Source: a virus
Strand: one strand, 5' to 3'
Length of the DNA stretch: 64,000 bases
Virus record (IMG/VR): IMGVR_UViG_3300021498_000001
Span: 1-64,000 of that record
This document shows positions 14,246 to 60,332 of this stretch, piece after piece (the first letter of the stretch is position 1; every line of letters begins with the position of its first letter). The position numbers and the translations under genes were made by a program. Under the pieces are notes generated by a model. That model saw only the letters and a list, made by a program, of their open reading frames with translations, had not been told where the DNA came from and searched no databases.

Positions 14246-15565
14246 ATGCCTTATTTCATTAAAAAATCTCCTGAAAAACCTGCACGTTTCTACGAAGCAA
14301 CTTCTACTAGACTCTCTTTGCCTGGACAAGAGGAAACCAAATCTGAGGATTGGCCTGGGTGGAGAAGATTAACAGGTGCAGCTCCTCTTAGAGAACTTAA
14401 GCCTGGAATCTTTGAAAGAATGAGTCGTATAGCCAAATGGCTGTATGACTCTAATCCTCTTGCAAAGAGAATTATTGAATATATCAAGAATTTTGTTGTA
14501 GGTGAGGGTATCTACTTTGATGCAGAGGATGCCAGAGTTAAAGAGATACTGGATGCATTTTGGTATGATGATGTTAATAATTGGCCTCTAAGACAGCATG
14601 ACAGAATCTTAGAGCTCTGTTTATATGGAGAGAGTATCTGGCCTGTCACAGTAAATCCTTCTAATGGACATGTAAGATTGGGATTTATTGACCCTTTAGA
14701 TGTAAAAGAAGTCGTGCCTAATGAGGACAATTGCTTGATTCTAGAAAAGATAGTCTTGGCAAGGCCAATTCATGGAAAGACAGAGCTGTCTATTATAAGG
14801 CGAGATGAAAATCCAAATAGCGATACTTTTGGATATCTCTCAGGTGAATGTTTCTTCTTCGCAATCAATAAAGTAAGTAATGCAACAAGAGGAGCAAGTG
14901 ACCTCTTGCCTCTAATAGATTGGATAGATGCCTACGACCAGTTTCTCTTTACAAGACTAGAGCGACAAATGAATATCAATAACTTCTGCTGGGATGTTAC
15001 ATTAGAGGGAGCAGATAAGTATGAGATAGAGCAATTTCTTAAGAATCTGCCTCCACCTACTCCAGGTACAGTAAGAGTTCACAATGAAAAGGTAACTTGG
15101 AATGTTGTTGCGCCTAAACTTGAGGCAAGAGATGCAAACCAAGAGAGCAGGCTTATAAGAAACCATATCCTAAGTGGTGCAGGTTTTCCTCCTTACTATT
15201 TTGCAGATACAGAAGGTGTGAGAGCTGTTGCTTATGAGCAGGCATTTCCTACAGAGAAAATGCTTATTACCAGACAGAAATACTTCAAAGCAATGATTGA
15301 GTATGTCTTTAACTTTGTTATAGACCAAGCCATTATTCACAAAAGACTGCCTGCAAATGTAAATCGCAAGTTTGAAATTGTATTTCCAGAAATATCTCTA
15401 AGGGATGTAGAGAGATTAAGCAGGGCACTTAAAAATGTAACTCTTTCTTTAGAGCACTTACAGCAAAATGGATTGGTTACAAATAGAGAGGCAAAAAAGA
15501 TAATAAGAAACTTGCTTAGTCAAATGGGATTGGAGTTAGAGGAGTTAAATGGAAGAAAAGGATAA
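14246..15565 (+). CDS. portal protein
   Basis: 439 aa after terL; SNPLAKRII...FVVGEG, LYGE, RGASDL portal-type motifs. Confidence 0.88.
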   Translation: MPYFIKKSPEKPARFYEATSTRLSLPGQEETKSEDWPGWRRLTGAAPLRELKPGIFERMSRIAKWLYDSNPLAKRIIEYIKNFVVGEGIYFDAEDARVKEILDAFWYDDVNNWPLRQHDRILELCLYGESIWPVTVNPSNGHVRLGFIDPLDVKEVVPNEDNCLILEKIVLARPIHGKTELSIIRRDENPNSDTFGYLSGECFFFAINKVSNATRGASDLLPLIDWIDAYDQFLFTRLERQMNINNFCWDVTLEGADKYEIEQFLKNLPPPTPGTVRVHNEKVTWNVVAPKLEARDANQESRLIRNHILSGAGFPPYYFADTEGVRAVAYEQAFPTEKMLITRQKYFKAMIEYVFNFVIDQAIIHKRLPANVNRKFEIVFPEISLRDVERLSRALKNVTLSLEHLQQNGLVTNREAKKIIRNLLSQMGLELEELNGRKG

Positions 15566-18500
15566 TTTAGATAGGCTAAGCGAGCTTCATTTAGAGCAGT
15601 TTAGAAAAGAAGGGATTGATTACGACCTTAAGAATCCTCAAACTAGATGGAAACAACTCTATGCAGACCTTCGTTACATCTTTGACTCTGGTCTGCCTAG
15701 AATTTGGAAAGGGAAAAAATGGGGAGATTGGACAGAAGAAGACTGTCTTAGATATGCAGGCAAGATTATAGATGCCTTGCGTTCAGTTTATTTTCCTTTA
15801 ATCCCACCTTCCAAGAATGACCCCAGATACAACACAAGCTACTGGAAAGCCTATCGCAAGGCAGAAGAGAAGGGATATGTCAAATCCAAGCCTCCCAAAT
15901 CAGAAGAACTACCTGAATGGGATAAAAAGCGCAAAGAGATAATCAAGACCTCTTTAGAAGAAGCAGAGAGAAAATTAGATGGACTTTATTTAACACCTCC
16001 ACATGGTGAGCTTTTCTGGACTGATGAAAAGAAGTTGCTCGTGAAAACAAAGGAGTTTGACTTATCCAAGCCTCATTATCTTATAGAAGATGGATACTGC
16101 TATGGCATTATCTCATTTAAGAAGCCTAAAGAAATAACTAAACAGCAATTCTTCTCTGAAGAGTTTAAGAAAAAACATCGCATTTTGGATACAGAAGCTT
16201 GGCAATGGTGGAGAATGACGAGGGACAATGCAGTGGAGCCTAAGCTGTATGCTTATGAGATAAAAGAATTCAAACCTTTTGATGTACCTAGAAGAGTGAG
16301 AGTGCCTAAGGGCATACAGGTTATTGTGAAGGCAGACAATATTGAATTTGTGAGTGAAGATGAAGAGAAACCTGCAAAGATTGATTGGCCTACAATGGCA
16401 GCAAAGGAGGCAAAGACTGATTTTATTAAATTCTATGGTACAAAAGGATATATAGAAGAGGAGAGTGAAAGACATAAATATCATACCTGTATTTTATTTT
16501 CTCTAAATGACACAAATATCTTGTTAGATTATGGAGAAAGGCATCCAGCAGAGATAGAAGAAAGAGTGGATGTAGTATTGAACTCGCATCGGCACGTCGA
16601 TCATATATGCCCTGAAACAGTCAACTTTGCTTGCCCTTTATATGTATCTCAGCAAACTTTAGAAAGAGTAGATTTTCCTCTGCCTGAAGACATTAGAGTC
16701 TATCGGCCCAGAGAACCTTTTAAAATCGACAATATAGAAATCACTGCCTATCCAGTTTACCACTCTATTCGTGCTCCTATGCATATCTTCAAAATCGAAA
16801 CAGACAATCTTGCCATAGGAGTAATGACTGATTTTTTGGGATTTAGAGACAAGAATGATGAGGACTCCTTTTATCCAGATTTAGACATTGTAATTATAGA
16901 TGGCAGTAGCATTACAAGAGATTTAAGGCGATGGAGAGAAGAGCATGACGAGCCTTTTGGACATGAGAGTGTAATACACCAGATAGAAAGGATTAGAGAT
17001 AAGTGTGAGAAAAATCCTGTAATAATCCTCACTCATATAGGCAATGAAGGACTTGAGCTAGGTGATGAGAGAATTCTAGAGTTATTGTCAGAGCAATTTC
17101 CTAATATGAGGATATATGTTGCCAAAGATGGCAGTATATTTGATTTGAAGACAAAGCGATTTACAGAAGCATTCAAAGGAGAACAAATCTGCAAAGATAT
17201 AGTTGCAAACTTGCCTTCCTTTACATGGATACCTGAATTTGTAAGCATAACAGGCTCTACCTTATTTACAAAAGACCATGCGCCTAGAGATTTAGATGTG
17301 ATGTGCAAGGCAGAAGAAATAAATGGAAAGTGGTATATACCTGTGGATACTTCTTTATTACTTAAACTGCAACGAGCGTATCAATATGCAACAAAGAAAG
17401 TATTAGGTAAGGCAATTAAAGCTGACTTTCCTCCTCCCTCGTTGATAGGCCCAAATTGGTGTGTTGATGATAAAACTGAGATTTTAACCAAGGATAGAGG
17501 TTGGGTATTATTCAAAGACTTAAAGGAATCAGACTTAGTAGCTACAGTATCAAAGGACGACTATTTAGAATTTCAGAAACCAATAAGATATTTCTCTAAT
17601 TTCTATAAAGGAAAAATGATTCATATCAAGAATAAGAATATAGATTTATTGGTCACTCCAGAACATAAGGTTATCTATTATCCATGTTTCACGAGAAATA
17701 AAAAACGAATCATATCTGAAGAATGGCAGATGATAGAAGCTCAGAAACTCCTTGAAATGAAAGGAAGAATTTATTTGAAACTAGGATGCAAATGGAAAGG
17801 TGATGGTGATTCAATATTTTGGATTCCACCCTGTATTGGATACAACATGAAGTTAGAACCGCCAGTACCAATTGATATGGAAGATTTTGCTATGTTTATG
17901 GGATGGTATTTATCTGAAGGAAGTGTTCACATTACACCAAAACAAGTTTACTCCGTCTGTATTGCACAATATGAAGACTCTCCTAAGTTTCAAGAATTAA
18001 AGGAATTACTATCTCGCTTGCCATTTGACTTTAAAGAAGTAAGAGGGAACCAAGACAATCCAGAAAAGATTACTGGATTTTGTTGCAAATCGAAACAGTT
18101 AGCTTTATATCTTAAACAATTTGGTAAATGTTATGATAAGTTTATTCCTAATGAAATTAAGAATCAAAAACCAGAAATACTGAAAAGATTTTTAGAATGT
18201 TATTTCTATGGCGATGGACATTTGAGAAAAAGAGCAAAAGGACTGTATGTTGCTAAAACTGTATCTGAACGCTTAGCTGGTGACCTGCAAGAAATTGGCT
18301 TGAAGCTAGGAATTAGAGTCTCCTATAATAAGGAAGGAAATGGAAAACGAAGAAGAATCTACATTGGTAATTTCACTCTTGAATCTAAGTGGAAAAGCAA
18401 AATGAGGCAATTATGTCGTGTTTGTCTTGAGCTTGGACATGTAAAGGAAGTACCATATGAAGGAATGATATATGCAGTTGAAGTGCCTAATGGTATTGTT

Positions 18501-21500
18501 ATTGTTAGGAGAAACTTTAGATTTTGTGTGACTGGTAACTCTTCCATTCCTGCCTACGATTTAAAACTTGTCCCCAGAAAAAATCCAGAAGTAAGAAGGA
18601 CAGGAGAAGAAGAGTTTGAAGAGAAGGTTTATGGAGTGGATTTTAAAGAAAAGCTACGCCTTCGCACCAAATCCAAAGATATTGAAAAAATGGCTCAACA
18701 GTCCCTAGAAGAAGATAAAGTTAAACCTCTTCGCTTCTTTATGCCTCTCAAACCTATAAGAGTGCAGGGCAAACATGGAGAAAGGAATACGCCTGAAAGA
18801 TTGGTAGAGCTATTTGAGCCTCAGCATTATCCTGTATATAACTCAGTCAAGAGGGATGGTTTCAGGGCCATCCTAATGTACGATGGAAATAAGGTTGTCA
18901 TTTACTCAGAAGATGGCAATGACATTACAGACCAATTGCCTACAATTGTAGAAGCAATCAAAAAACTCAAGGTTAAATCAGTCATTCTGGATGCTGAGAT
19001 TGAACTCTGGGAAAATGGACAGCATCATCCAAGAGAGGCAGCAATTGCTAAAATTCACTCCAAAGCAATAGAAGATGAGAATTTGATTGCCAATATTTTT
19101 GACTGTGTCTATCTAAATGGCCAAGACTTACACAAAGAACCTTTTGAAAAGAGATGGAAGGCATTAAATTCTATTGGCATTAAATATTCAAAGGAGACCA
19201 GCCTAGACCCAAAGCAGAAACTCAATATCATACCTCATATCCCATGCAATACACCCAAAGAGCTTCTTAAAGAGACAGAACGAATGAGAAGAGTGAAATC
19301 GAGTGAAGGATGTGTGGCCATTGCACACAATGCTGTATATCCTTTGGATGGAAAGCCAGAAGGTAACTCTTTCTGTAAGTTTCATAATAATGTGGTTGTG
19401 AGAGGGATAGTAGTACAACCAGTCGAAACACGAACCAGCGGCGTATTTAATTTGACCTGGGGTTGTTTAGCAGAAGGCCACGAAATCTTAAAGAAAGACC
19501 AGACAGAAGTAGGGCCTTATGAAAAGGTCTTAGTTATAGGCAGCACTTTTGCAGCACCTTATGTAAAAAGAGGAGCTGTTATTGAGGTTGAGTGTGAGAC
19601 AATCAATCATATCATCCATGAAGATATAGAAGGCAAACCTATAGAGATTACAGCTTGGGCACCCAGATTTATGCGAGTGGTACCTGGAGCAAAGCCAGAC
19701 AGCATAGATGATATTTTAAGAAAAGCAAGGAAAGAAAATCATGTTTTGCAGATTAAAATAGTTAAACCTGATGGCACAGTAGAGTACAGAGAGTCAAAGA
19801 AAGAACTCCTTTGCTTTCTTACAGAAGAACCTACTTTAGAGAGTCAGATAAGCGATAGATTTGGCGCAGCCAAATATGCTGTGTTCTTTGAACCTGCTAC
19901 TTATCACTTTGAAGCAGTAGATTTGTCTAATTTTAGAACAGGTGTAGAGATTGCAGATTTAATAAAGCAGCATCAGGCAACTAAAGTCATTACAAATCAA
20001 ATAGGAAGATTTAGCAGAGACGAATTAGAAAAAGCTGGCATTGAGATTGATTTTGCAGAGGGAAGGGTGAGTGATTATTTGAAAAAGGAGCTGGGAGAGA
20101 GTCCTTTGGTAAAGGAGGCAGAAATAAGGGAGCAGGGTGACCCATATATGCAGTATTTCGATGAGGATAAAGAGCATAGAGTGTGCAACCAGAGGCATTA
20201 TAGATTTGCTCTTAAGGACATACTCAAAGAGACTGGAATGGAAGATGAATGGCCTGATGAGTGGACAGAAGAAGATTGGCGAAAAAATTGGGATTCTTGG
20301 AAAAGAAGAGTATATCCAAAATTAAGGAAATATTTTGAAACTCATCCTGAATATGAGCATAGTCCTTCAACTCATGTAGATCAAAGATATGAGACAGATA
20401 GTGGTGCATTGATTGGATGGACTATATTGGATTCACTGCCAGATAGACCTAAAGTGCCTCCTCTTTCTTTGGAGGATGCCAAAAAGTTTGATAGAGATCC
20501 TTCTAATTGGAAGATTGATTGGAACACAGGTGAATGGGCTTGGCGTGAAAAAAAAGGTGGAGCAAAGGCAAGAATTTCAATTGTAGTAAGGAAAAAGTCA
20601 CCAGAGCCCCTAGACTGGCTCACTTTTGAGGGTGAACAGCCCCCCAAATCGGTTGGTGCAACAGCTTATGGCCCTGCTATCTTTACTCACATTACTCCTT
20701 TAGGAGTAGTTGAGACGCTCAGCCAGAAAAGTTACATGCATGAATACTATCTCACATTTCCCAATTTTAAATGGCATATAGTATTTCGTCTTTTGAGGAA
20801 ACCATTTGTGCAGAAAGAATCATTTAAGGAAGCACTGAGAACACAAGATTATGAGCGTCTTTCAGAAATGGTTGAATTAGAAGAAGGCGAATCTTTAGAA
20901 GAAGGCTTGTATCTAGAAGCTAAGAGATTTATTCCAGTTTCTAAGGGCGGGTGGGGGCTGGAGGAAAGTGGATGGGTAGCTATTTATGTCACAAGAGAAC
21001 CCTATGTTATTTCAAAGCGTGCAGTACAATTGAAATGGATTCCACCTTATCCCTACAGCGCCCTCCCTCGCCATATCAAGAAACAAATCCCACCTGAATA
21101 TCACTACTGGAAAGAAAAGGATATGCAAAAGCGCATAGAGATAAGGGATGCTCTTGTTAAAGCTATCAAAGAAAAGAAAGTTGTATTGAAGGAGAGTATT
21201 GTAAGAGACTTTAAACTTGACTTTCACTGGAGCGAACCTGCTGAGTTGGTGAAGCGTCGCAGCCCCGCCCACAAACATTGGGACCTTCGAATCGATGGCG
21301 ACCTCAAAAAGAAAACAGGTTATATCTTCCACGCAGTCTTAGAACTCAATCCCTTAGAAGTTGACTCTACTTCTGCATATCTCAAGAAATGCAAAGGAGA
21401 TGAAGGCGGCATTGATTGGATGAACGTGGGCAAAGAAAAGACAGTTAAATTCACAAAGGGCCCAGGAACATTTGAAAAGAATGAGCCAGGGTACATAAGA

Positions 21501-21659
21501 GCATTGGATTGGGGCAGAGTTTTAGTGCTTGAAGACTCTCCTCTCTTTAAGAAGTTTCAATTTAAGGGCAAAAAATTAAAAGGTATCTGGATTATGTACA
21601 GAAGCAGTCCAGATACAGATATTTGGATATTTGAAAAGAGTAAGAATATAGGCAAATAA
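15549..21659 (+). CDS. multidomain protein: ASCH-like, MBL-fold hydrolase, nucleotidyltransferase-like, intein, ATP-dependent DNA ligase, NifB/NifX-like, two LigD phosphoesterase-like domains
   Basis: HRHVDH; FVSITGS...DLDV; VKRDG, LDAE, IFDC, SEG ligase motifs; ISDRFGAAKY...QIG; QRH...HVDQRYE and FHW...HWDLRI...LKGIW. Confidence 0.8.
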   Translation: MEEKDNLDRLSELHLEQFRKEGIDYDLKNPQTRWKQLYADLRYIFDSGLPRIWKGKKWGDWTEEDCLRYAGKIIDALRSVYFPLIPPSKNDPRYNTSYWKAYRKAEEKGYVKSKPPKSEELPEWDKKRKEIIKTSLEEAERKLDGLYLTPPHGELFWTDEKKLLVKTKEFDLSKPHYLIEDGYCYGIISFKKPKEITKQQFFSEEFKKKHRILDTEAWQWWRMTRDNAVEPKLYAYEIKEFKPFDVPRRVRVPKGIQVIVKADNIEFVSEDEEKPAKIDWPTMAAKEAKTDFIKFYGTKGYIEEESERHKYHTCILFSLNDTNILLDYGERHPAEIEERVDVVLNSHRHVDHICPETVNFACPLYVSQQTLERVDFPLPEDIRVYRPREPFKIDNIEITAYPVYHSIRAPMHIFKIETDNLAIGVMTDFLGFRDKNDEDSFYPDLDIVIIDGSSITRDLRRWREEHDEPFGHESVIHQIERIRDKCEKNPVIILTHIGNEGLELGDERILELLSEQFPNMRIYVAKDGSIFDLKTKRFTEAFKGEQICKDIVANLPSFTWIPEFVSITGSTLFTKDHAPRDLDVMCKAEEINGKWYIPVDTSLLLKLQRAYQYATKKVLGKAIKADFPPPSLIGPNWCVDDKTEILTKDRGWVLFKDLKESDLVATVSKDDYLEFQKPIRYFSNFYKGKMIHIKNKNIDLLVTPEHKVIYYPCFTRNKKRIISEEWQMIEAQKLLEMKGRIYLKLGCKWKGDGDSIFWIPPCIGYNMKLEPPVPIDMEDFAMFMGWYLSEGSVHITPKQVYSVCIAQYEDSPKFQELKELLSRLPFDFKEVRGNQDNPEKITGFCCKSKQLALYLKQFGKCYDKFIPNEIKNQKPEILKRFLECYFYGDGHLRKRAKGLYVAKTVSERLAGDLQEIGLKLGIRVSYNKEGNGKRRRIYIGNFTLESKWKSKMRQLCRVCLELGHVKEVPYEGMIYAVEVPNGIVIVRRNFRFCVTGNSSIPAYDLKLVPRKNPEVRRTGEEEFEEKVYGVDFKEKLRLRTKSKDIEKMAQQSLEEDKVKPLRFFMPLKPIRVQGKHGERNTPERLVELFEPQHYPVYNSVKRDGFRAILMYDGNKVVIYSEDGNDITDQLPTIVEAIKKLKVKSVILDAEIELWENGQHHPREAAIAKIHSKAIEDENLIANIFDCVYLNGQDLHKEPFEKRWKALNSIGIKYSKETSLDPKQKLNIIPHIPCNTPKELLKETERMRRVKSSEGCVAIAHNAVYPLDGKPEGNSFCKFHNNVVVRGIVVQPVETRTSGVFNLTWGCLAEGHEILKKDQTEVGPYEKVLVIGSTFAAPYVKRGAVIEVECETINHIIHEDIEGKPIEITAWAPRFMRVVPGAKPDSIDDILRKARKENHVLQIKIVKPDGTVEYRESKKELLCFLTEEPTLESQISDRFGAAKYAVFFEPATYHFEAVDLSNFRTGVEIADLIKQHQATKVITNQIGRFSRDELEKAGIEIDFAEGRVSDYLKKELGESPLVKEAEIREQGDPYMQYFDEDKEHRVCNQRHYRFALKDILKETGMEDEWPDEWTEEDWRKNWDSWKRRVYPKLRKYFETHPEYEHSPSTHVDQRYETDSGALIGWTILDSLPDRPKVPPLSLEDAKKFDRDPSNWKIDWNTGEWAWREKKGGAKARISIVVRKKSPEPLDWLTFEGEQPPKSVGATAYGPAIFTHITPLGVVETLSQKSYMHEYYLTFPNFKWHIVFRLLRKPFVQKESFKEALRTQDYERLSEMVELEEGESLEEGLYLEAKRFIPVSKGGWGLEESGWVAIYVTREPYVISKRAVQLKWIPPYPYSALPRHIKKQIPPEYHYWKEKDMQKRIEIRDALVKAIKEKKVVLKESIVRDFKLDFHWSEPAELVKRRSPAHKHWDLRIDGDLKKKTGYIFHAVLELNPLEVDSTSAYLKKCKGDEGGIDWMNVGKEKTVKFTKGPGTFEKNEPGYIRALDWGRVLVLEDSPLFKKFQFKGKKLKGIWIMYRSSPDTDIWIFEKSKNIGK
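17460..18539 (+). mobile_element. intein with LAGLIDADG homing endonuclease (360 aa)
   Basis: N-terminal CVDDKTEILT, block B VTPEH, endonuclease blocks FMGWYLSEG and YFYGDG, C-terminal VTGN followed by +1 Ser. Confidence 0.92.
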
Positions 21660-25226: not shown

Positions 25227-26429
25227 ATGGCACTAGCAACAGAATTTGAATACATCAATCCATCTCCATCCTTCTTTATTGTAACAGGTTGTCCTCGTTC
25301 TGGCACTACATTTTTGATTGAACAAATCAAAGAACACCTTAAAGTGCCAGTCTTGGGATATGATGACCTAGTCTTACATAGAGAATGGAAAACAGCAATA
25401 GAGGCCAATGCTATTCTTTTAGGAGATGTGTTTGCAGACCTTAGTAAAGGAGCACCTAAGGCTGAGGAAGTAGAAAAGCAATATCCAGAATTCAAAGAAT
25501 TTCTTGAGTCACATAAAGATGAGTTCAGTGAATATGGTCTTTATTTCTTCAAAGACCCAAGAATATGCTACACATGGCCATTCTGGATGAGATTATTTGA
25601 AATAAGAATAATTCACATTGTGAGAGATTTTGAGGGTGTCTTTAACAGCATAGACGAAATGGATAAAGTAGGAGATAAAGAGGTTAGATTCAGATGGATT
25701 AGACCAAGAGAAGAATGGCATGAGATTTGGGAAAATCATGTAAATGGAGCAAGAGAAAGCAATAAGTATGTGCCCTATCTAGAGATCCCATTTGAGTCAT
25801 TTGTGAAAGATCCTAAGCCTTGGCTTATAAAAATAGCAAAATTCGTGAAAGCACCTGAAAAGTGCCTCAATCTAGGAAGTGGTCTTGCACCCAGAGCAGG
25901 CAGTGAATGGGTAAATGTGGATTACAACAAGGATTATATACCACCTACCAAATATGATGTTTATGGAGTAGTTGCAGATTTGGAAAATCCCTTGCCTTTT
26001 AAAGATTATACTTATTCATTCATAGTTGCAAATCATGTCCTTGAGCATATCAAGAATTATGAACAATTGATGTGTGAAATATACAGAGTGCTCAAAATTG
26101 GAGGAAGATTAATTATCAGAGTTCCTTATGCATTCTGTCGTGCAGCGATTGCAGACCCCACTCATGTAAGACAATTTGTACCTGAGTCATTCTTTCATTT
26201 TTTACCAGAAAATTTAGGGCCAGTAGCTAATCCTAAGTTTTGGGGCACATTTAAGATTATAGATTTGGAAGTGATTAAGCATGACAGGCCAGAGATAGAC
26301 AGGGGTGAGGTAGGCAGCTACTATTCAGAGGTGTTTTGTGAAATGGAGAAAATCCCTAAACAACAACCTCCTAAGCCAAACTGGACTATAAGGCAAGAAG
26401 ATGAGCAAAGGCAAAGCAATCATATTTAG
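25227..26429 (+). CDS. sulfotransferase-like domain fused to class I SAM methyltransferase-like domain
   Basis: TGCPRSGTT, KDPR, IVRD; then LNLGSG, NVD, HVLEH, LKIGG, DPTH. Confidence 0.85.
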   Translation: MALATEFEYINPSPSFFIVTGCPRSGTTFLIEQIKEHLKVPVLGYDDLVLHREWKTAIEANAILLGDVFADLSKGAPKAEEVEKQYPEFKEFLESHKDEFSEYGLYFFKDPRICYTWPFWMRLFEIRIIHIVRDFEGVFNSIDEMDKVGDKEVRFRWIRPREEWHEIWENHVNGARESNKYVPYLEIPFESFVKDPKPWLIKIAKFVKAPEKCLNLGSGLAPRAGSEWVNVDYNKDYIPPTKYDVYGVVADLENPLPFKDYTYSFIVANHVLEHIKNYEQLMCEIYRVLKIGGRLIIRVPYAFCRAAIADPTHVRQFVPESFFHFLPENLGPVANPKFWGTFKIIDLEVIKHDRPEIDRGEVGSYYSEVFCEMEKIPKQQPPKPNWTIRQEDEQRQSNHI

Positions 26430-54664: not shown

Positions 54665-54667
54665 TAA

Positions 54668-54738
54668 GCGGAGGTAGCTTAAAGGCAAAGCATTTGGCTT
54701 CCAGCCAAAGGATACAGGTTCGAGTCCTGTCCTCCGCT
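54668..54738 (+). tRNA. tRNA-Gly (TCC), CCA not encoded
   Basis: acceptor GCGGAGG/CCTCCGC, D arm GCTT/AAGC, anticodon arm TTTGG-CTTCCAG-CCAAA, T arm ACAGG-TTCGAGT-CCTGT, discriminator T. Confidence 0.93.
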
Positions 54739-54778
54739 TCTTTTTTTTCTAAAATCGAAAAGAAGAGGAAGGGGCTAG

Positions 54779-54987: not shown

Positions 54988-55302
54988 ATGAATAAAATAG
55001 ATAAATATTGGTTGGTCAAAATTGGGCCTAGTTGGCAAGATCCTCTTTGGATATTTGTAGCAGAAAATTATGAAACAGCGAAAGATTTTGTCTTTGAGAT
55101 AATGAAACGGTCTGCTTATAACGATTGGAGTATAGATGAGTCTAAAGATTTGCTAAATGTATATAGTGATAATCTAAAAATATGGATTGAGGTAGAACAA
55201 GCTGAATATTTAAGCAAGTCCTCAATAAATGCCTTATTGGGTTCACTTGCAAACGTGTTTGCCTTTAAGACTCTTGATAAGGAGAAACATAGCAATGCCT
55301 AG
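54988..55302 (+). CDS. hypothetical protein
   Basis: AAGGAGGT RBS before MNKID; paralogue at 63626. Confidence 0.65.
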   Translation: MNKIDKYWLVKIGPSWQDPLWIFVAENYETAKDFVFEIMKRSAYNDWSIDESKDLLNVYSDNLKIWIEVEQAEYLSKSSINALLGSLANVFAFKTLDKEKHSNA

Positions 55303-55762
55303 AAAACAACCTATATGGTACCGCAAAGGCTTTTCTACAGGTGGCAGATATGATTGGGAATTAGAGGCAGAAATAAGAGGTTATTCTTCTGTTAAGGAAA
55401 TGCTTGAGGATTTATACATCAAAAAAAACATGACTTATTATCAAGTTGCAGATTATCTGGGGGGCATTAGTGCTGGCGGTGTATTTAATAAACTCAAACG
55501 ATTGGGAATTTCAAAAGGATATAAGAGACATTTTAACAATAAATTTGAAGAACTTTTCCCCAAAGTCAAAAAGTGTTTAGAACAAGGACGATATTTGAAA
55601 GACTGTCTTGCACTAATAGGCTATAAATCTTGCGGCAATTGCAATGAAGGGTTTGTGGGATGGATGAAAAGGCATAAAGGATTAGTAAATAAAGGGTGCA
55701 GAAAATATCCTAAATGGGTGTTTGAAGAAAATAAACAAGGAGAACAGGATGCCAGAAAATAA
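55295..55762 (+). CDS. HTH DNA-binding protein
   Basis: LEDLYIKKNMTYYQVADYLGGISAGGVFNKLKRLGI; overlaps the tas start. Confidence 0.65.
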   Translation: MPRKQPIWYRKGFSTGGRYDWELEAEIRGYSSVKEMLEDLYIKKNMTYYQVADYLGGISAGGVFNKLKRLGISKGYKRHFNNKFEELFPKVKKCLEQGRYLKDCLALIGYKSCGNCNEGFVGWMKRHKGLVNKGCRKYPKWVFEENKQGEQDARK

Positions 55763-56645
55763 AATACAGAAACCTATAAGGCAATTAGTGCGAAGCATTT
55801 ATGATTTACAAGAAGATAGAAAGAGAATTGGTCTTAGGCTAGTGAATCATTTTATGGTGAAAATGGGAATTGCGCCTTCCCAGAAAAGAGGCAAAGCGAG
55901 GCAGTTATTAGACCAGTTAAAGCAAGAATATAAGAGAATCACAGACGGTCTCCTAGAAGAGCCTAATGTTAGAAAGCTGTTGAAAGAGAAAGGATTGATT
56001 ACCGATGAAGCAGAGATGATTTTGGTATCCATGTATTTTGATTTGTTGAAGAGAGAAGAGCAACAAGTTAAGGCTTTAGAAAAGGTATTGGAACAAGAGC
56101 GTATTTATACAACCTTTCTGAAGAATATCAAAGGTATTGGACCTCTACTAAGCGGTGTGCTTATATCGGAGATAGATATAACAAAGGCTAAATATGCAAG
56201 CTCTCTTTGGAAGTATGCGGGCCTTGATGTAATCACTTATTATGATGAAAATAAGAAGCAGTGGATAACAGAAGGCAGGCGAATGAAAACAACCCATTTA
56301 GAGGAGAGAGAGTATATAGACAAAGATGGGAAGAAGAAAGTTAAGAAGACTCTCACTTTCAATCCATTCCTAAAAAGCAAGTTGGTAGCAGAAAAGGGTG
56401 TAGCTCACAACTTCATAATGCACAGAACAGAACCTTATTATAGCATGTATTTGAACTACAAGTTTAGAGTGAGAAATAAGCCTGAGTATAAAGATGAATC
56501 TGATGGGCATATTCATAATATGGCTAAGAGGTATATTGCAAAGCAGTTTTTAATTGTGTATTATAAGAAGGCAAGAGAACTGGCTGGATTGCCTGTATAT
56601 AATCCTTATGCAGAGGCAAAGCTAGGAATAAAGCATGCTGTATAG
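55749..56645 (+). CDS. tasA: TasA-like Nop-domain RNA-guided protein (IS110 C-terminal-like, no RuvC/HNH)
   Basis: coiled coil, IKGIGP helix-hairpin, SSLWKYAGLDV, FNPFLKSKL, HIHNMAKRY; no DEDD domain; abuts dual-spacer array. Confidence 0.85.
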   Translation: MPENKIQKPIRQLVRSIYDLQEDRKRIGLRLVNHFMVKMGIAPSQKRGKARQLLDQLKQEYKRITDGLLEEPNVRKLLKEKGLITDEAEMILVSMYFDLLKREEQQVKALEKVLEQERIYTTFLKNIKGIGPLLSGVLISEIDITKAKYASSLWKYAGLDVITYYDENKKQWITEGRRMKTTHLEEREYIDKDGKKKVKKTLTFNPFLKSKLVAEKGVAHNFIMHRTEPYYSMYLNYKFRVRNKPEYKDESDGHIHNMAKRYIAKQFLIVYYKKARELAGLPVYNPYAEAKLGIKHAV

Positions 56646-57580
56646 CCATATGGATGAAGTTTCCCGCTGCATTCTAGCGAGCCATAGCTTTATAGGCAAC
56701 CATGCTTTTGAAGCGAGCCATAGCGGAACTGATAACCATGTTGCTTGAGCGAGTCATGCTATTAGAGTTATCCACTGCCAAGAAGCGGGTCCTAATTTTT
56801 CAGGTAACCTTGATAACATAGCGAGCCTTATTGACTGAGACAACCAAGATAAAGGAGCGAGCCTGATTTTCCAAGATAACCTCGATAAAATAGCGAGCCA
56901 GAAAATTTTAGACATCCACAATTGAAAAGCGAGCCACATGTACCCAGATATCCATTATTACAGAGCGAGCCGCAATAACACAGACGACCATGATTTGTGA
57001 GCAAGCCACTCTTTTCCAGTTGACCATTAAAGTTGAGCGAGCCATAGACAAATAGTTAACCATGATGTATAAGCGAGCCATGTACACTAAGTCAACCATT
57101 CGTTATTAGCGAGTCGCAGATGGTAAGTTAGCCATGTTGATATAGCGAGGCCATATTTGAATAGTCAACCATCTGAGAGAAGCGAGCCATATAGATTAAG
57201 GCAACCGAAATTTCCTAGCGCCATTAGAAAGGAGTTAGCCAAGGTGATTGAGCGAGTGGTAGATATCCCTGAATCTTAAGCGAGTCATTTTAAAGGAGGC
57301 AACCACGTCTGGTGAGCGAGCCACTTTCGCACAGATAACCACCCAAGGCAAGCGAGCCATTTGATTTAAGACAACCATTTTGTGATAGCGAATGCCATAA
57401 TTCCTGAGCTAACCCACGATAATGAGCGAGTCATGATTAGTTAGACATCCCATAGAGACGAAGCGAGCCATTATTGTCAAGACACCCATTATGTTTTAGC
57501 GAGCCCTTAATGCCAAGATAACCATTTTCCCATAGCGCAATCTAAGCCATATCAGTTAAGCTACCCAAGCCTTTAGAGCG
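56644..57580 (+). repeat. TIGR (tandem interspaced guide RNA) array, 26 units
   Basis: unit = AGCCA-N9-AGnnAACCA-N9-AGCG (36 nt); constant motifs, unique spacers. Confidence 0.92.
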
Positions 57581-57605
57581 AAACTCCCTTACCTTCTTTT
57601 TATTT

Positions 57606-57982
57606 TGATACACTTGAGACAGTTATCACACTTAGTACATTCGAAACACTTGATACAGTTGAGACAGTTAGCATAGAATATACAGAAATATCACAGTAAT
57701 CCTTGAAAATCCAGAAATATCAAGCATGATACACTATGCAACACTTTGATACAGTTATGGACATAAGACACATCGGATTTTTCTCTCAAAATCAAGATAT
57801 AATCTATAAAATCAGGGACACCCTTTCAACCTTTGATACAGTTTGAGACATTATGGACATAAGACACATCGGGATTTAGCTAGATATAGCAAGGAAAATC
57901 CAGGATTTTGGAGAATTTTTTGATACACCTGTGTGTGTGTGTATCAGTGTATCTTGGTTTATATAAATATAAATATATATAA
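57606..57982. repeat. iteron-like repeat region, candidate replication origin
   Basis: seven tandem 9-mers from 57606, six TGATACA copies plus one inverted, 22-bp direct repeat, AT-only tract. Confidence 0.55.
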
Positions 57983-57990
57983 CGGCCTAG

Positions 57991-58557
57991 CTATGGAGTT
58001 TGAATCGAATTTAATTGGTTCCTCAAAGACTCACGATACTTTATCTCATTTTCATCCAAGTTTGCCCTTCCCCTCTTTATAACTCTATTCTCAAACTCAA
58101 AGGCTATCTTTGCCTGTTTTCTCTTTGCTCTAAGATAAGGATACAAGAATTGCAAAACAGCACCTGCTTTATACCCATAAGCTACCCAATAATATGTAGG
58201 CTTTTGAATATCTAACCTGCGATAAACCTTGCCTATTTCTAGGACTTTCTTTATTTGTCTAGGGACTTCCCTATCTTCATGTTTAATAAGGATCTCCAAT
58301 TGATAAGAAGGACATTCCCTGTCTTTTCTATTTCTCTTTGCAATCCTTATTATGCCATATTTCTCAAACAGATCTCCCAAATACATGCTCTGAGACTTCT
58401 TCTGCAATAATTTTCTTTTTAGATTGCCCAAGAAAATCTGAGTTTTGCCCATTGTATTTCTATGCTTGCATTTGGGGCATATTGCGCTTAGGTGACCTTT
58501 TCTACTTTGGGAGTAGTATAGAAATTTATGACCACAGAGTCCACATTGTATCTGCAT
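57991..58557 (-). CDS. zinc ribbon plus degenerate LAGLIDADG-family domain
   Basis: CGLC...CPKC; YLGDLFEKYG motif remnant; LQFLYPYLRAKRKQA. Confidence 0.75.
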   Translation of the reverse strand: MQIQCGLCGHKFLYYSQSRKGHLSAICPKCKHRNTMGKTQIFLGNLKRKLLQKKSQSMYLGDLFEKYGIIRIAKRNRKDRECPSYQLEILIKHEDREVPRQIKKVLEIGKVYRRLDIQKPTYYWVAYGYKAGAVLQFLYPYLRAKRKQAKIAFEFENRVIKRGRANLDENEIKYRESLRNQLNSIQTP

Positions 58558-58696: not shown

Positions 58697-59197
58697 TTAG
58701 AAAGTTTGAGACATTTCTTTAGATATTGCTTCTAACAAGACATTGGTTGGTATAGCAATGCTCTTGGTTGTATAAGTTTTGTTGTTAGCACTTATAATAT
58801 CATAACTCTTTATCCAATTCTTTCCATTCATGATCCAAGCTCGTTTTAACAACAAGACTGGTAATAGGTAAACCTTCTTGGAGGACATAATAGCATAAAC
58901 TATATAGTCAGATTGACAAGTGTAAAGCCAACCAGGTTTGCGTTGTTCCCAGATACTCCATATTTCTAACAATATGTCACCATAATCCTTTCTTCGTTTC
59001 TTCTCATCAATCGTTAAAATTCTTCCATCTTTGAAATATAAGATTTTATCTATTCCTTTCTTTTGTAAATCTAGATCTTCTACAAGTTTAATTCTCCTCA
59101 AACCAGGAAATATGCGATAGTAGAAACTATCAAATAATTCATTCTCTCGTTGATCTAGTGAATATTGTAAATCTACATCAAAATCGTTATATTTCAT
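58697..59197 (-). CDS. PD-(D/E)XK nuclease-like protein
   Basis: QKKGID...IDEKKR...LLEIWS...PGW; start MKYND overlaps the MTase end. Confidence 0.7.
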   Translation of the reverse strand: MKYNDFDVDLQYSLDQRENELFDSFYYRIFPGLRRIKLVEDLDLQKKGIDKILYFKDGRILTIDEKKRRKDYGDILLEIWSIWEQRKPGWLYTCQSDYIVYAIMSSKKVYLLPVLLLKRAWIMNGKNWIKSYDIISANNKTYTTKSIAIPTNVLLEAISKEMSQTF

Positions 59198-60332
59198 TGC
59201 CCCATGCTTTCCAGCCCTGTCGAGTCTCTCGTGCAAAAAGCTCAAGATACTTTCCTTTGGGGCACATTTTTTCAATCATTTCATATATTAATTTGGGTTT
59301 TTCACTATGCTTGCCTCTTCTCTCACGAATTATCGAGCTAAATCTTGAATCTGGTGGAGGAACAGGGTAGTTCCCTTTAACACCTACTAATAATAACTCA
59401 TGCTGTATTCTGAACCAAAATCCCATACCTATAACTTCTTTATCCCATACAGCGCAAGTGCGATATTTGAAGCCCCAGGCTCTCATAACTTCCAAAGCTT
59501 CTTCTAACTTTGGAGCAGTTGCCCACAAAAATAATACTGCATTTTCTGCAGATGGTATTTGTAATTGCTTTATTTCATCTAGAGTCATAGTTGGGTACTG
59601 ATTTTCGATTGCTCTATTGATTGCCATTGAAAACTCATATTGCCAAGGAGGATCGGCAAGTATAACATCATATTTTTCATTATTTGTCAAAATTGATGGC
59701 TCGGTGTATAAATCTCTTATTATCTTTTGTCTTGCTTTCTTGATTGATAATCTATCCTCCTCAATAACCTTGATTATCTTTTTCTTCTCTTCAGGTGGCT
59801 TCTTATAAAGCTCAATAATATCCTGTTTTGGGTTTTGTTTGAGGATTTCTCTAGGTATGTGTTGTGTTAACTCTTCTACTGCTTGGGCTAGAAGGGCGTC
59901 GTTATAAACTGTTCTGCTTGTTACTCCTGTTTCTTCAGCTATCTTTTGAGCAGTCTCAGAAGGATCTGAAATTTTTTCAGATCCCTTACTGTAAGGTATT
60001 TGGCCCCCATGACTCTGTTTCTCCAGCAAATACTTCTTGCCTCTTAAAACACTCACCTCAAAAGGATCCAGATTTCTCCTACTTAATTGGTTATCAATAA
60101 CCCAATTAATAGCTGATTTTCTATCAGGCAAGGAGATATACCTAAAGGTTGGTTTAATATTGTGTTTTTTACAAATCTCTAATCGGTGGTGTCCATCCAA
60201 TAATATATCTTGCTCTTTCCATACAACTAATGGTTCAGTAAGGCCTTCATTTAAAATTTTTTGCTCGAGTCCCTGAAATTCATCTGGCTTTAATGGTGGT
60301 ATCAAATTCATAATATCTGGATCGATTTTCAT
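59187..60332 (-). CDS. ParB-like domain fused to MT-A70 family N6-adenine methyltransferase
   Basis: LLDGHHR ParB motif; ILADPPW, LFLW, HSEKP, ELFAR, WGNE. Confidence 0.9.
   Translation of the reverse strand: MKIDPDIMNLIPPLKPDEFQGLEQKILNEGLTEPLVVWKEQDILLDGHHRLEICKKHNIKPTFRYISLPDRKSAINWVIDNQLSRRNLDPFEVSVLRGKKYLLEKQSHGGQIPYSKGSEKISDPSETAQKIAEETGVTSRTVYNDALLAQAVEELTQHIPREILKQNPKQDIIELYKKPPEEKKKIIKVIEEDRLSIKKARQKIIRDLYTEPSILTNNEKYDVILADPPWQYEFSMAINRAIENQYPTMTLDEIKQLQIPSAENAVLFLWATAPKLEEALEVMRAWGFKYRTCAVWDKEVIGMGFWFRIQHELLLVGVKGNYPVPPPDSRFSSIIRERRGKHSEKPKLIYEMIEKMCPKGKYLELFARETRQGWKAWGNEI

Follow-up and report, generated by a model that had tools for sequence, protein, structure and literature searches.

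The RNA-guided systems have recently been joined by the TIGR-Tas systems, which include a form with a nuclease-free effector, TasA. In the account of the family by Faure et al. (2025, Science, PMC12045711), dual-repeat TIGR arrays are described as two alternating repeats of 8-12 nucleotides (nt) with 9-nt spacers and a box C reading CCA; the edge repeats contain a covarying extra base pair, their first and last copies are truncated, and the box motifs may diverge provided that edge and loop covary. The guides (tigRNAs) were reported there to be 36 nt long, to begin and end midway through edge repeats and to be bound by TasA, the commonest effector. Arrays usually comprise 5-15 units according to the same account, with a rho-independent terminator that is typical, not obligatory. 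A preprint of 2026 (10.64898/2026.09.09.750476) catalogued 6,685 arrays and reported reversible, guide-dependent repression of transcription by a TasA that binds its target DNA with no cleavage. Here, we describe a locus of this type in a 64,000-nt stretch of viral DNA (positions 1 to 64,000 of IMG/VR record IMGVR_UViG_3300021498_000001, hereafter the window), which belongs to a phage genome of 72,622 bp. The gene tasA, encoding 298 amino acids (aa), and the array that adjoins it very probably constitute a dual-repeat TIGR-TasA system of a tailed phage from hydrothermal-vent metagenomes, which would, by analogy with the studied members of the family, act through RNA-guided binding without cleavage.

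A preliminary description of the window, made from the letters alone, had announced 26 tandem dual-repeat units, and our own segmentation resolved the same number on the + strand (56640-57576) with a 36-nt period; the two units quoted in that description (56680-56715 and 57040-57075) read exactly AGCCA-N9-AG..AACCA-N9-AGCG. Each unit contains two 9-nt repeats, called edge (AGCGAGCCA) and loop (AG..A.CCA), in alternation with two unique 9-nt spacers, A and B, and both repeats start with AG (box D) and end with CCA (box C). This dual-spacer anatomy matches the published dual-repeat definition (PMC12045711), and the array ends are truncated, the first edge repeat being reduced to AGCCA and the last to AGCGA. 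The AGCCA of unit 1 lies at 56644, the second base of the tasA TAG stop codon (56643-56645), so the array does start inside the stop codon, as had been proposed. An exact length of 36 nt is kept by 20 of the 26 units; units 15 (37 nt), 17 (34 nt), 22 (38 nt), 23 (37 nt) and 26 (43 nt) carry small insertions or deletions within a repeat, and unit 18 (28 nt) has no loop repeat. The earlier figure of about 25 guides has to be corrected, since only about 19-20 units are fully regular.

In the 19 regular 36-nt units that follow unit 1, little or no variation is seen at positions 1-8, 19-20 and 25-26, and the edge and loop repeats are nearly constant at their two ends, AG and CC(A). The spacer positions of these units carry almost no information, except for a bias toward T at the first base (12/19 in both spacers), and beyond their first three bases the spacers were no more similar to one another than shuffled spacers. 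Spacer A often begins with TA and spacer B with TG, and functionally the repeat may extend over the first base or two of the "spacer". The spacers (56649-57576) are also rich in T, which makes up 40% of their bases on the transcribed strand, compared with 30% in the window. The array cannot be attributed to chance, because no other region of the 72,622-bp genome has a lag-36 periodicity and because the exact edge 9-mers, searched on both strands of the genome, are confined to it and to the + strand: 13 copies were found, 10 with G-C at positions 2/7 (AGCGAGCCA) and 3 with G-T (AGCGAGTCA). Tandem Repeats Finder returned three fragments of the array only, with periods of 18, 36 and 36.

The tasA protein consists of a coiled coil (about residues 7-114) and a Nop domain (about 118-292) with a four-stranded beta-hairpin insertion at 161-201. 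The GIGP and LWKYAGL motifs named in the preliminary description are present as IKGIGP and SLWKYAGL, and the coiled coil and Nop/IS110 C-terminal fold that it had recognized were borne out by sequence, profile and structure matches to TasR, TasH, IS110 and Nop5 proteins. In Pfam, only a weak match to PF02371 (IS110-type transposase C-terminal domain; 9.4e-5) was obtained, and neither PF01548 nor the nuclease families were matched. Among PDB sequences, the protein retrieved TasR (9MTY, E 2.7e-21) and TasH (E 1.5e-8), and a profile of 39 family members improved these values to 3.2e-25 and 1.1e-15, respectively. An AlphaFold2 model based on the 39-member alignment (predicted local distance difference test score [pLDDT] 90.5, predicted template modelling score [pTM] 0.84) has long helices up to residue 114, residues 1-115 being helical only, followed by a helical domain that bears the insertion. 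Foldseek placed TasR and TasH at the top (E 5e-9 to 3e-6), followed by IS621 (3e-3) and Nop5 (0.1-0.3), and VIA-align gave Z 19.8 for TasR (root-mean-square deviation 2.0 over 195 residues, 35% identity), 19.4 for TasH, 14.5 for IS621/ISCro4 and approximately 7.5 for Nop5, Nop56/58 and Prp31. Model residues 4-286 were aligned to the cores of TasR (109-316) and IS621 (122-314) only, and the TasH match likewise covers 61-298; all begin after the nuclease parts of the partners, and these alignments revealed no counterpart of a RuvC or HNH domain in the tasA protein, as had been stated earlier. Because the alignments are limited to the coiled-coil and Nop core, we identify the protein as TasA. The ATG at 55749 was preferred to an upstream TTG at 55722 as the start codon on account of the spacing to AAGGAG; alignments with homologues begin at residues 4-10.

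TaTasR (9MTY), a TIGR-TasR in complex with tigRNA and target DNA, is the top match in both sequence and structure and has the GIGP and WxYAG motifs in common with the window protein; unlike the latter, it has a RuvC nuclease (TasR 1-108) and carries W at the position of family residue Y287. SpTasH of Salicola phage CGphi29 (9W03, 9W04, 21KL) is also phage-borne and has an alignable C-terminal loop, whereas its HNH domain is missing from the window TasA, which aligns to TasH from about TasH residue 61. Y289 and H296 in the C-terminal loop of SpTasH were reported to cut the precursor of tigRNAs (PMC13421893). In sequence and profile alignments, Y287 of the window protein falls in the column of this catalytic Y289. 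Y287, K291 and H296 are invariant in 39/39 aligned family members, and all 29 family-invariant residues are present in the tasA protein, with invariance counted with that protein as the first row. Y287 and H296 probably act as a processing pair, by analogy with SpTasH. Described dual-repeat TIGR-TasA systems, for example FpTIGR of Flavonifractor plautii, resemble the locus in layout: both have a solo coiled-coil and Nop protein with no accessory genes, an adjoining array of 36-nt edge/spacer A/loop/spacer B units, box C CCA, truncated terminal edges and a phage carrier. A box D reading AG, 26 units and the lack of a predicted terminator set the window locus apart from FpTIGR-type systems, the two having been compared by description only.

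A word-indexed search yielded 385 homologous proteins at E <= 1e-3, mostly 264-343 aa in length and with a query coverage of 91-100% in 119 of the 120 listed; an exhaustive search extended the TasA family to 2,056 cluster representatives, and a relative is encoded on 192 stretches of a viral contig collection. Loci were compared among 82 viral relatives, and array statistics were collected from 79 distinct related arrays. When lags of 30-44 were scanned, the best period was 36 in 78/82 loci, and 74/82 had a clear lag-36 array, mostly starting at the gene end and with the same repeats (edge AGCGAGCCA or AACGAGTCA; loop AGAAAACCA or AGACAACCA), in sizes of about 5 to 49 units, a range into which the 26 units of the window fall. 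Within the edge repeat, positions 2 and 7 covary: of 783 copies in the 79 arrays, 752 were pairable (G-C 299, A-T 276, G-T 177) and 31 had other combinations. Since G-T can pair only in RNA of the + strand, this covariation also supports transcription of the tasA strand. Nine neighbor genes of the window were looked for, and each was found beside tasA in 0/82 loci, which fits with a self-contained single-protein module.

A Nop/coiled-coil protein, alternating repeats, box motifs, edge covariation, truncated ends and a Tyr/His pair with a putative catalytic role thus occur together, and the locus is a further case of the published TIGR-Tas family, not a new kind of system. The novelty that the preliminary description implied was not upheld: the family was published in 2025, thousands of its arrays are catalogued in the preprint mentioned above, and a TasA 50% identical to that of the window (locus L004) is present in the Tas supplementary table of the Science paper. 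Four peptide strings of the window TasA were not found in part of that table, which says little.

Several other known systems were considered and rejected. CRISPR arrays likewise place constant repeats and unique spacers in tandem beside an effector gene, but they have one repeat of at least 23 nt with spacers of similar size, in contrast to the two alternating 9-nt repeats and 9-nt spacers found here. No Cas protein was matched by PADLOC in the 85 open reading frames (ORFs) of the window or by Pfam scans of these and two overlapping ORFs, and the absence of cas genes noted earlier was thereby corroborated; CRISPR-Cas was rejected for these reasons. The bridge-RNA recombinases of the IS110/IS621 type (8WT6, 8WT9, 9T56) have a coiled coil and a C-terminal RNA-binding domain in common with the window protein, whose PHROG label is "transposase"; unlike them, it lacks a DEDD RuvC domain and is accompanied by a 26-guide array instead of a single bridge RNA. 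With PF01548 unmatched and the IS621 alignment confined to residues 122-314, an IS110-family transposase was rejected.

A box C/D small ribonucleoprotein was rejected because fibrillarin and L7Ae families were absent from Pfam scans of the 85 ORFs of the window (64 kb of the 72.6-kb genome) and Nop5 was matched at only about Z 7.5. The related idea that the guides direct TasA to RNA, as box C/D small RNAs do, appeals to the Nop fold held in common with Nop5 and Prp31 and to the box C/D-like anatomy of the guides. It is an exceedingly improbable one: TasR was reported to have no activity on RNA substrates (PMC12045711), TasA is described as binding double-stranded DNA (PMC12045711; 10.64898/2026.09.09.750476), the expected fibrillarin- or L7Ae-like partner was missing from the scans just described, and the similarity to DNA-targeting Tas and IS110 proteins far exceeds that to Nop5.

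The function proposed for the TIGR-TasA locus is modelled on these studied relatives. The array would be co-transcribed with tasA from the + strand as a single precursor. A TasA dimer would bind the box C/D motifs, cut the precursor inside each edge repeat, probably via Y287/H296, and carry one 36-nt guide, so that about 19-20 regular units would give an equal number of different guides. At an adjacent 9+9 bp site, spacers A and B would each pair with a different DNA strand, and the ribonucleoprotein would bind there without cutting and obstruct transcription or some other DNA transaction. The suggestion of non-cleaving, RNA-guided DNA binding that the preliminary description had made for this locus agrees with experiments on other TasA proteins. 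In particular, Xu et al. (2026, 10.64898/2026.09.09.750476) report repression by MbTasA and by catalytically dead TasR, nuclease-free Tas proteins to which the mechanism proposed here would correspond; repression was demonstrated with those other proteins, whereas the window locus is known from sequence and a structure model.

TasR cleavage is reported to leave an 8-nt 3' overhang, the cut lying 5' of the nucleotide paired to the fifth base after box C (PMC12045711). From this overhang and cut rule, we derived that one target strand should carry the sequence of spacer A and then that of spacer B in reverse complement. As this arrangement is our own derivation, both possible arrangements were searched locally, with 25 guides (unit 18, which lacks a loop repeat, was excluded). 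In the phage's own 72,622 bp, searched on both strands with gaps of 0-2 and with the array region excluded, there were 0 matches at <=1 mismatch in either arrangement. At 2 mismatches, the two arrangements gave 0 and 2 matches against shuffled means of 0.8 and 0.78, and at 3 mismatches 12 and 7 against 11.1 and 11.0. Within the array, one trivial match was found at 3 mismatches, which contained the guide's own spacer. Self-targeting was therefore rejected, and self-regulation through near-perfect matches is unlikely. The 82 related viral loci (476,616 letters including separators) contained 0 matches at <=1 mismatch and 1 at 2 mismatches (shuffled mean 2.8). No guide was aimed at the repeat-spacer junctions of arrays, and 0-1 of the 25 guides spelled a ribosome-binding site plus start codon, the same as in shuffles.

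In the viral contig collection, exact-pattern scans were made for four of the 25 guides (2, 12, 17 and 23) plus one control. Guides 17 and 23 each gave 0 matches; guide 2 gave 12 in nine unrelated clusters, and guide 12 gave 12, 10 of them from one lineage. The control, guide 2 in the other arrangement, gave 57 matches, of which 29 agreed with one another in their two gap letters and probably come from one lineage, and hence the guide matches are at chance level. Adjacent 9+9 matches, the search for which had been recommended in the preliminary description, thus did not rise above control in the own genome, in the 82 loci or for the four guides scanned in the viral collection. Because the targets do not lie in the phage's own genome, they are most likely to be found in the host or in rival mobile elements. 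The authors who described the family likewise propose host or rival elements, and state that the natural targets and the spacer gain of TIGR arrays are open (PMC12045711; 10.64898/2026.09.09.750476).

The absence of self-matches also bears on another proposal, namely, that TasA and its guides serve a different DNA transaction of the phage, such as RNA-guided bending for recombination, integration, replication or partition, possibly with phage-encoded partners. DNA bending and ParB-linked TasA roles were raised in the discussion of the Science paper (PMC12045711), and the locus stands at the end of a recombination/replication module that encodes RecT, exonucleases and a primase-like protein; it is immediately upstream of a 9-nt tandem block that is unique in the genome and 2.5 kb upstream of a ParB-like/MT-A70 fusion gene on the other strand. 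This proposal is nevertheless highly improbable, as own-genome guide matches were lacking at <=1 mismatch and were otherwise no better than shuffled, neighbor genes are not conserved beside tasA in the 82 relatives, the 9-nt block is limited to the lineage of the window and one relative, L083, and the ParB-like gene lies outside the tasA operon.

L083 encodes a TasA 89% identical to that of the window, with the same downstream region and a longer homologous array, and it offers a view of array turnover. Collinear homologues in L083 (at least 14 of 18 spacer bases; shuffled maximum 14) were found for 10 of the 25 window guides, 8 of them in units 16-26, so that the shared guides are mostly distal. 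Two of the 10 are identical and 8 differ at 1-4 of the 18 spacer bases. In contigs from four vent runs, whole units are skipped, inserted or replaced; one such contig has an extra unit after 57390, which is also found in L083. Collinear sharing of guides at <=1 mismatch was not seen in the 82 related viral loci. The distal conservation seen with L083 was rejected as a general rule, because the shared fraction in 52 non-redundant pairs of related arrays is spread over the array thirds (0.39, 0.24 and 0.27); the proximal third is possibly inflated by the gene end, the limits of each array were drawn automatically, which truncated the two arrays of the window-L083 pair in this test. There is no general CRISPR-like polarity of conserved versus new units.

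A bolder interpretation is that the phage TasA is a multiplexed repressor with about 20 guides against host genes or rival elements of the vent community, the guides being exchanged unit by unit. The absence of self-matches, the 10 collinear guides of L083 and the unit changes in the vent runs allow such exchange, and we hold this interpretation to be unlikely; if true, it would mean an adaptive guide repertoire without known acquisition machinery. The locus is a clean case, with 26 units among genes that are known, a relative in synteny and variants in the vent populations, and it is a usable test bed for target finding and array turnover. Two results are general: the guides do not address their own genome, and the 52 array pairs show no CRISPR-like polarity.

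Several observations weigh against a functional TIGR-TasA system as described above. The guide searches gave no target in the own genome, the related loci or the viral collection, so that DNA targeting rests wholly on homologues. The terminator scan of 55000-58200 detected 0 terminator-like sites, and the RNA fold of 57540-57660 was no better than shuffles (z = +1.15), with no stable hairpin. The 6 irregular units of 26 may escape processing. The box D is AG, compared with the UG described for TasR arrays (PMC12045711), with box D and box C motifs agreeing between edge and loop repeats. H296 lies two residues past the SpTasH H296 column, its role in processing being inferred, and among the runs whose contigs hold the locus, none is on record as RNA.

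Some of these observations would also suit a decaying or idle relic, descended from TIGR-TasA systems and now devoid of working guides: the 6 units with repeat indels or a missing loop repeat, the missing terminator and the fruitless target searches, together with the point changes (1-4 of 18 bases) in 8 of the 10 guides homologous to L083. However, the reading frame is unbroken and contains each of the 29 family-invariant residues, exact 36-nt spacing is kept in 20 units, the locus is present with variants on contigs of several vent metagenome runs, and the syntenic L083 retains both gene and array. We consider such decay very unlikely, and a TIGR-TasA system in working order remains our preferred interpretation.

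The coordinates of the locus and of the neighboring features are given in the table.

Table. Features of the TIGR-TasA locus and its surroundings (window coordinates).
Feature	Positions	Strand	Basis or remark
Shine-Dalgarno-like AAGGAG	55737..55742	+	6 nt 5' of the tasA ATG
tasA, 298 aa, nuclease-free TIGR-associated protein	55749..56645	+	Translation, homology, model
Array unit 1	56640..56675	+	5'-truncated edge overlapping the tasA stop; degenerate loop repeat; kept in L083 (17/18 spacer bases)
Array units between unit 1 and unit 15	56676..57143	+	Segmentation
Array units 15-26	57144..57576	+	Regular: 16, 19, 20, 21, 24, 25; irregular: 15, 17, 18, 22, 23, 26
Terminal 3'-truncated edge repeat AGCGA closing the array	57577..57581	+	As in published array ends
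T-rich tract after the array	57594..57608	+	Sequence reading; no hairpin before it
About ten tandem 9-nt units TTGA.ACA	57605..57694 (on to ~57935)		Right after the array
tRNA-Gly (anticodon TCC)	54667..54740	+	1 kb upstream of tasA
188-aa ORF	57991..58557	-	Homing-endonuclease-like
ParB-like N-terminal region fused to MT-A70 DNA methyltransferase	59187..60332	-	2.5 kb downstream of the array
2,036-aa ORF	15549..21659	+	Between portal and capsid genes
Sulfotransferase-family and class I methyltransferase domains in one ORF	25227..26429	+	Among head/tail genes

The T-rich tract that follows the array may mark the end of transcription. The TTGA.ACA block is the only lag-9 periodic stretch in the 72.6-kb genome; beyond it lie scattered copies of its motif and a direct repeat of 27 nt (57755-57781, 57851-57877). 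Among 124 TasA loci, the block was found only in the window and in L083, by which it was ruled out as a feature of TIGR loci in general; in this phage lineage, it may serve as an iteron, an origin or an array that binds protein. The ParB-like/MT-A70 fusion does not correspond to the operonic tasParB described in the Science paper (PMC12045711), since it lies on the opposite strand and at a distance. The 188-aa ORF borders the repeat-rich intergenic region and matched the PHROG "HNH endonuclease" (8e-16) and, weakly, LAGLIDADG_1.

The window is that of a tailed phage, with genes for a large terminase, a portal, a capsid-protease fusion, a tail tube, a tape measure, RecT, exonucleases and a primase zinc-finger protein. 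tasA is the last in a long series of + strand genes for recombination and replication, with a 14-nt overlap at the stop of the ORF before it. The locus is present, with variants, on contigs of hydrothermal-vent metagenome runs. No relative of the terminase was found in the genome collection, and a Megablast search of GenBank phages with 40000-64000 returned nothing. TasA relatives from the genome collection (L102-L124) were found on contigs in metagenome-assembled genomes of widely differing phyla, among them Saccharibacteria, Planctomycetota, Flavobacteriales, Neomarinimicrobiota and Micrarchaeum; the contigs may be those of phages that were binned along with other DNA, and the phyla are too varied to be informative on the host. 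In the structural module, the 2,036-aa ORF encodes an unusual giant multi-domain protein, with matches to an ATP-dependent DNA ligase, a metallo-beta-lactamase-fold hydrolase, LAGLIDADG-like and thymidylate-synthase-like sequences, and a dinitrogenase FeMo-cofactor-binding domain.

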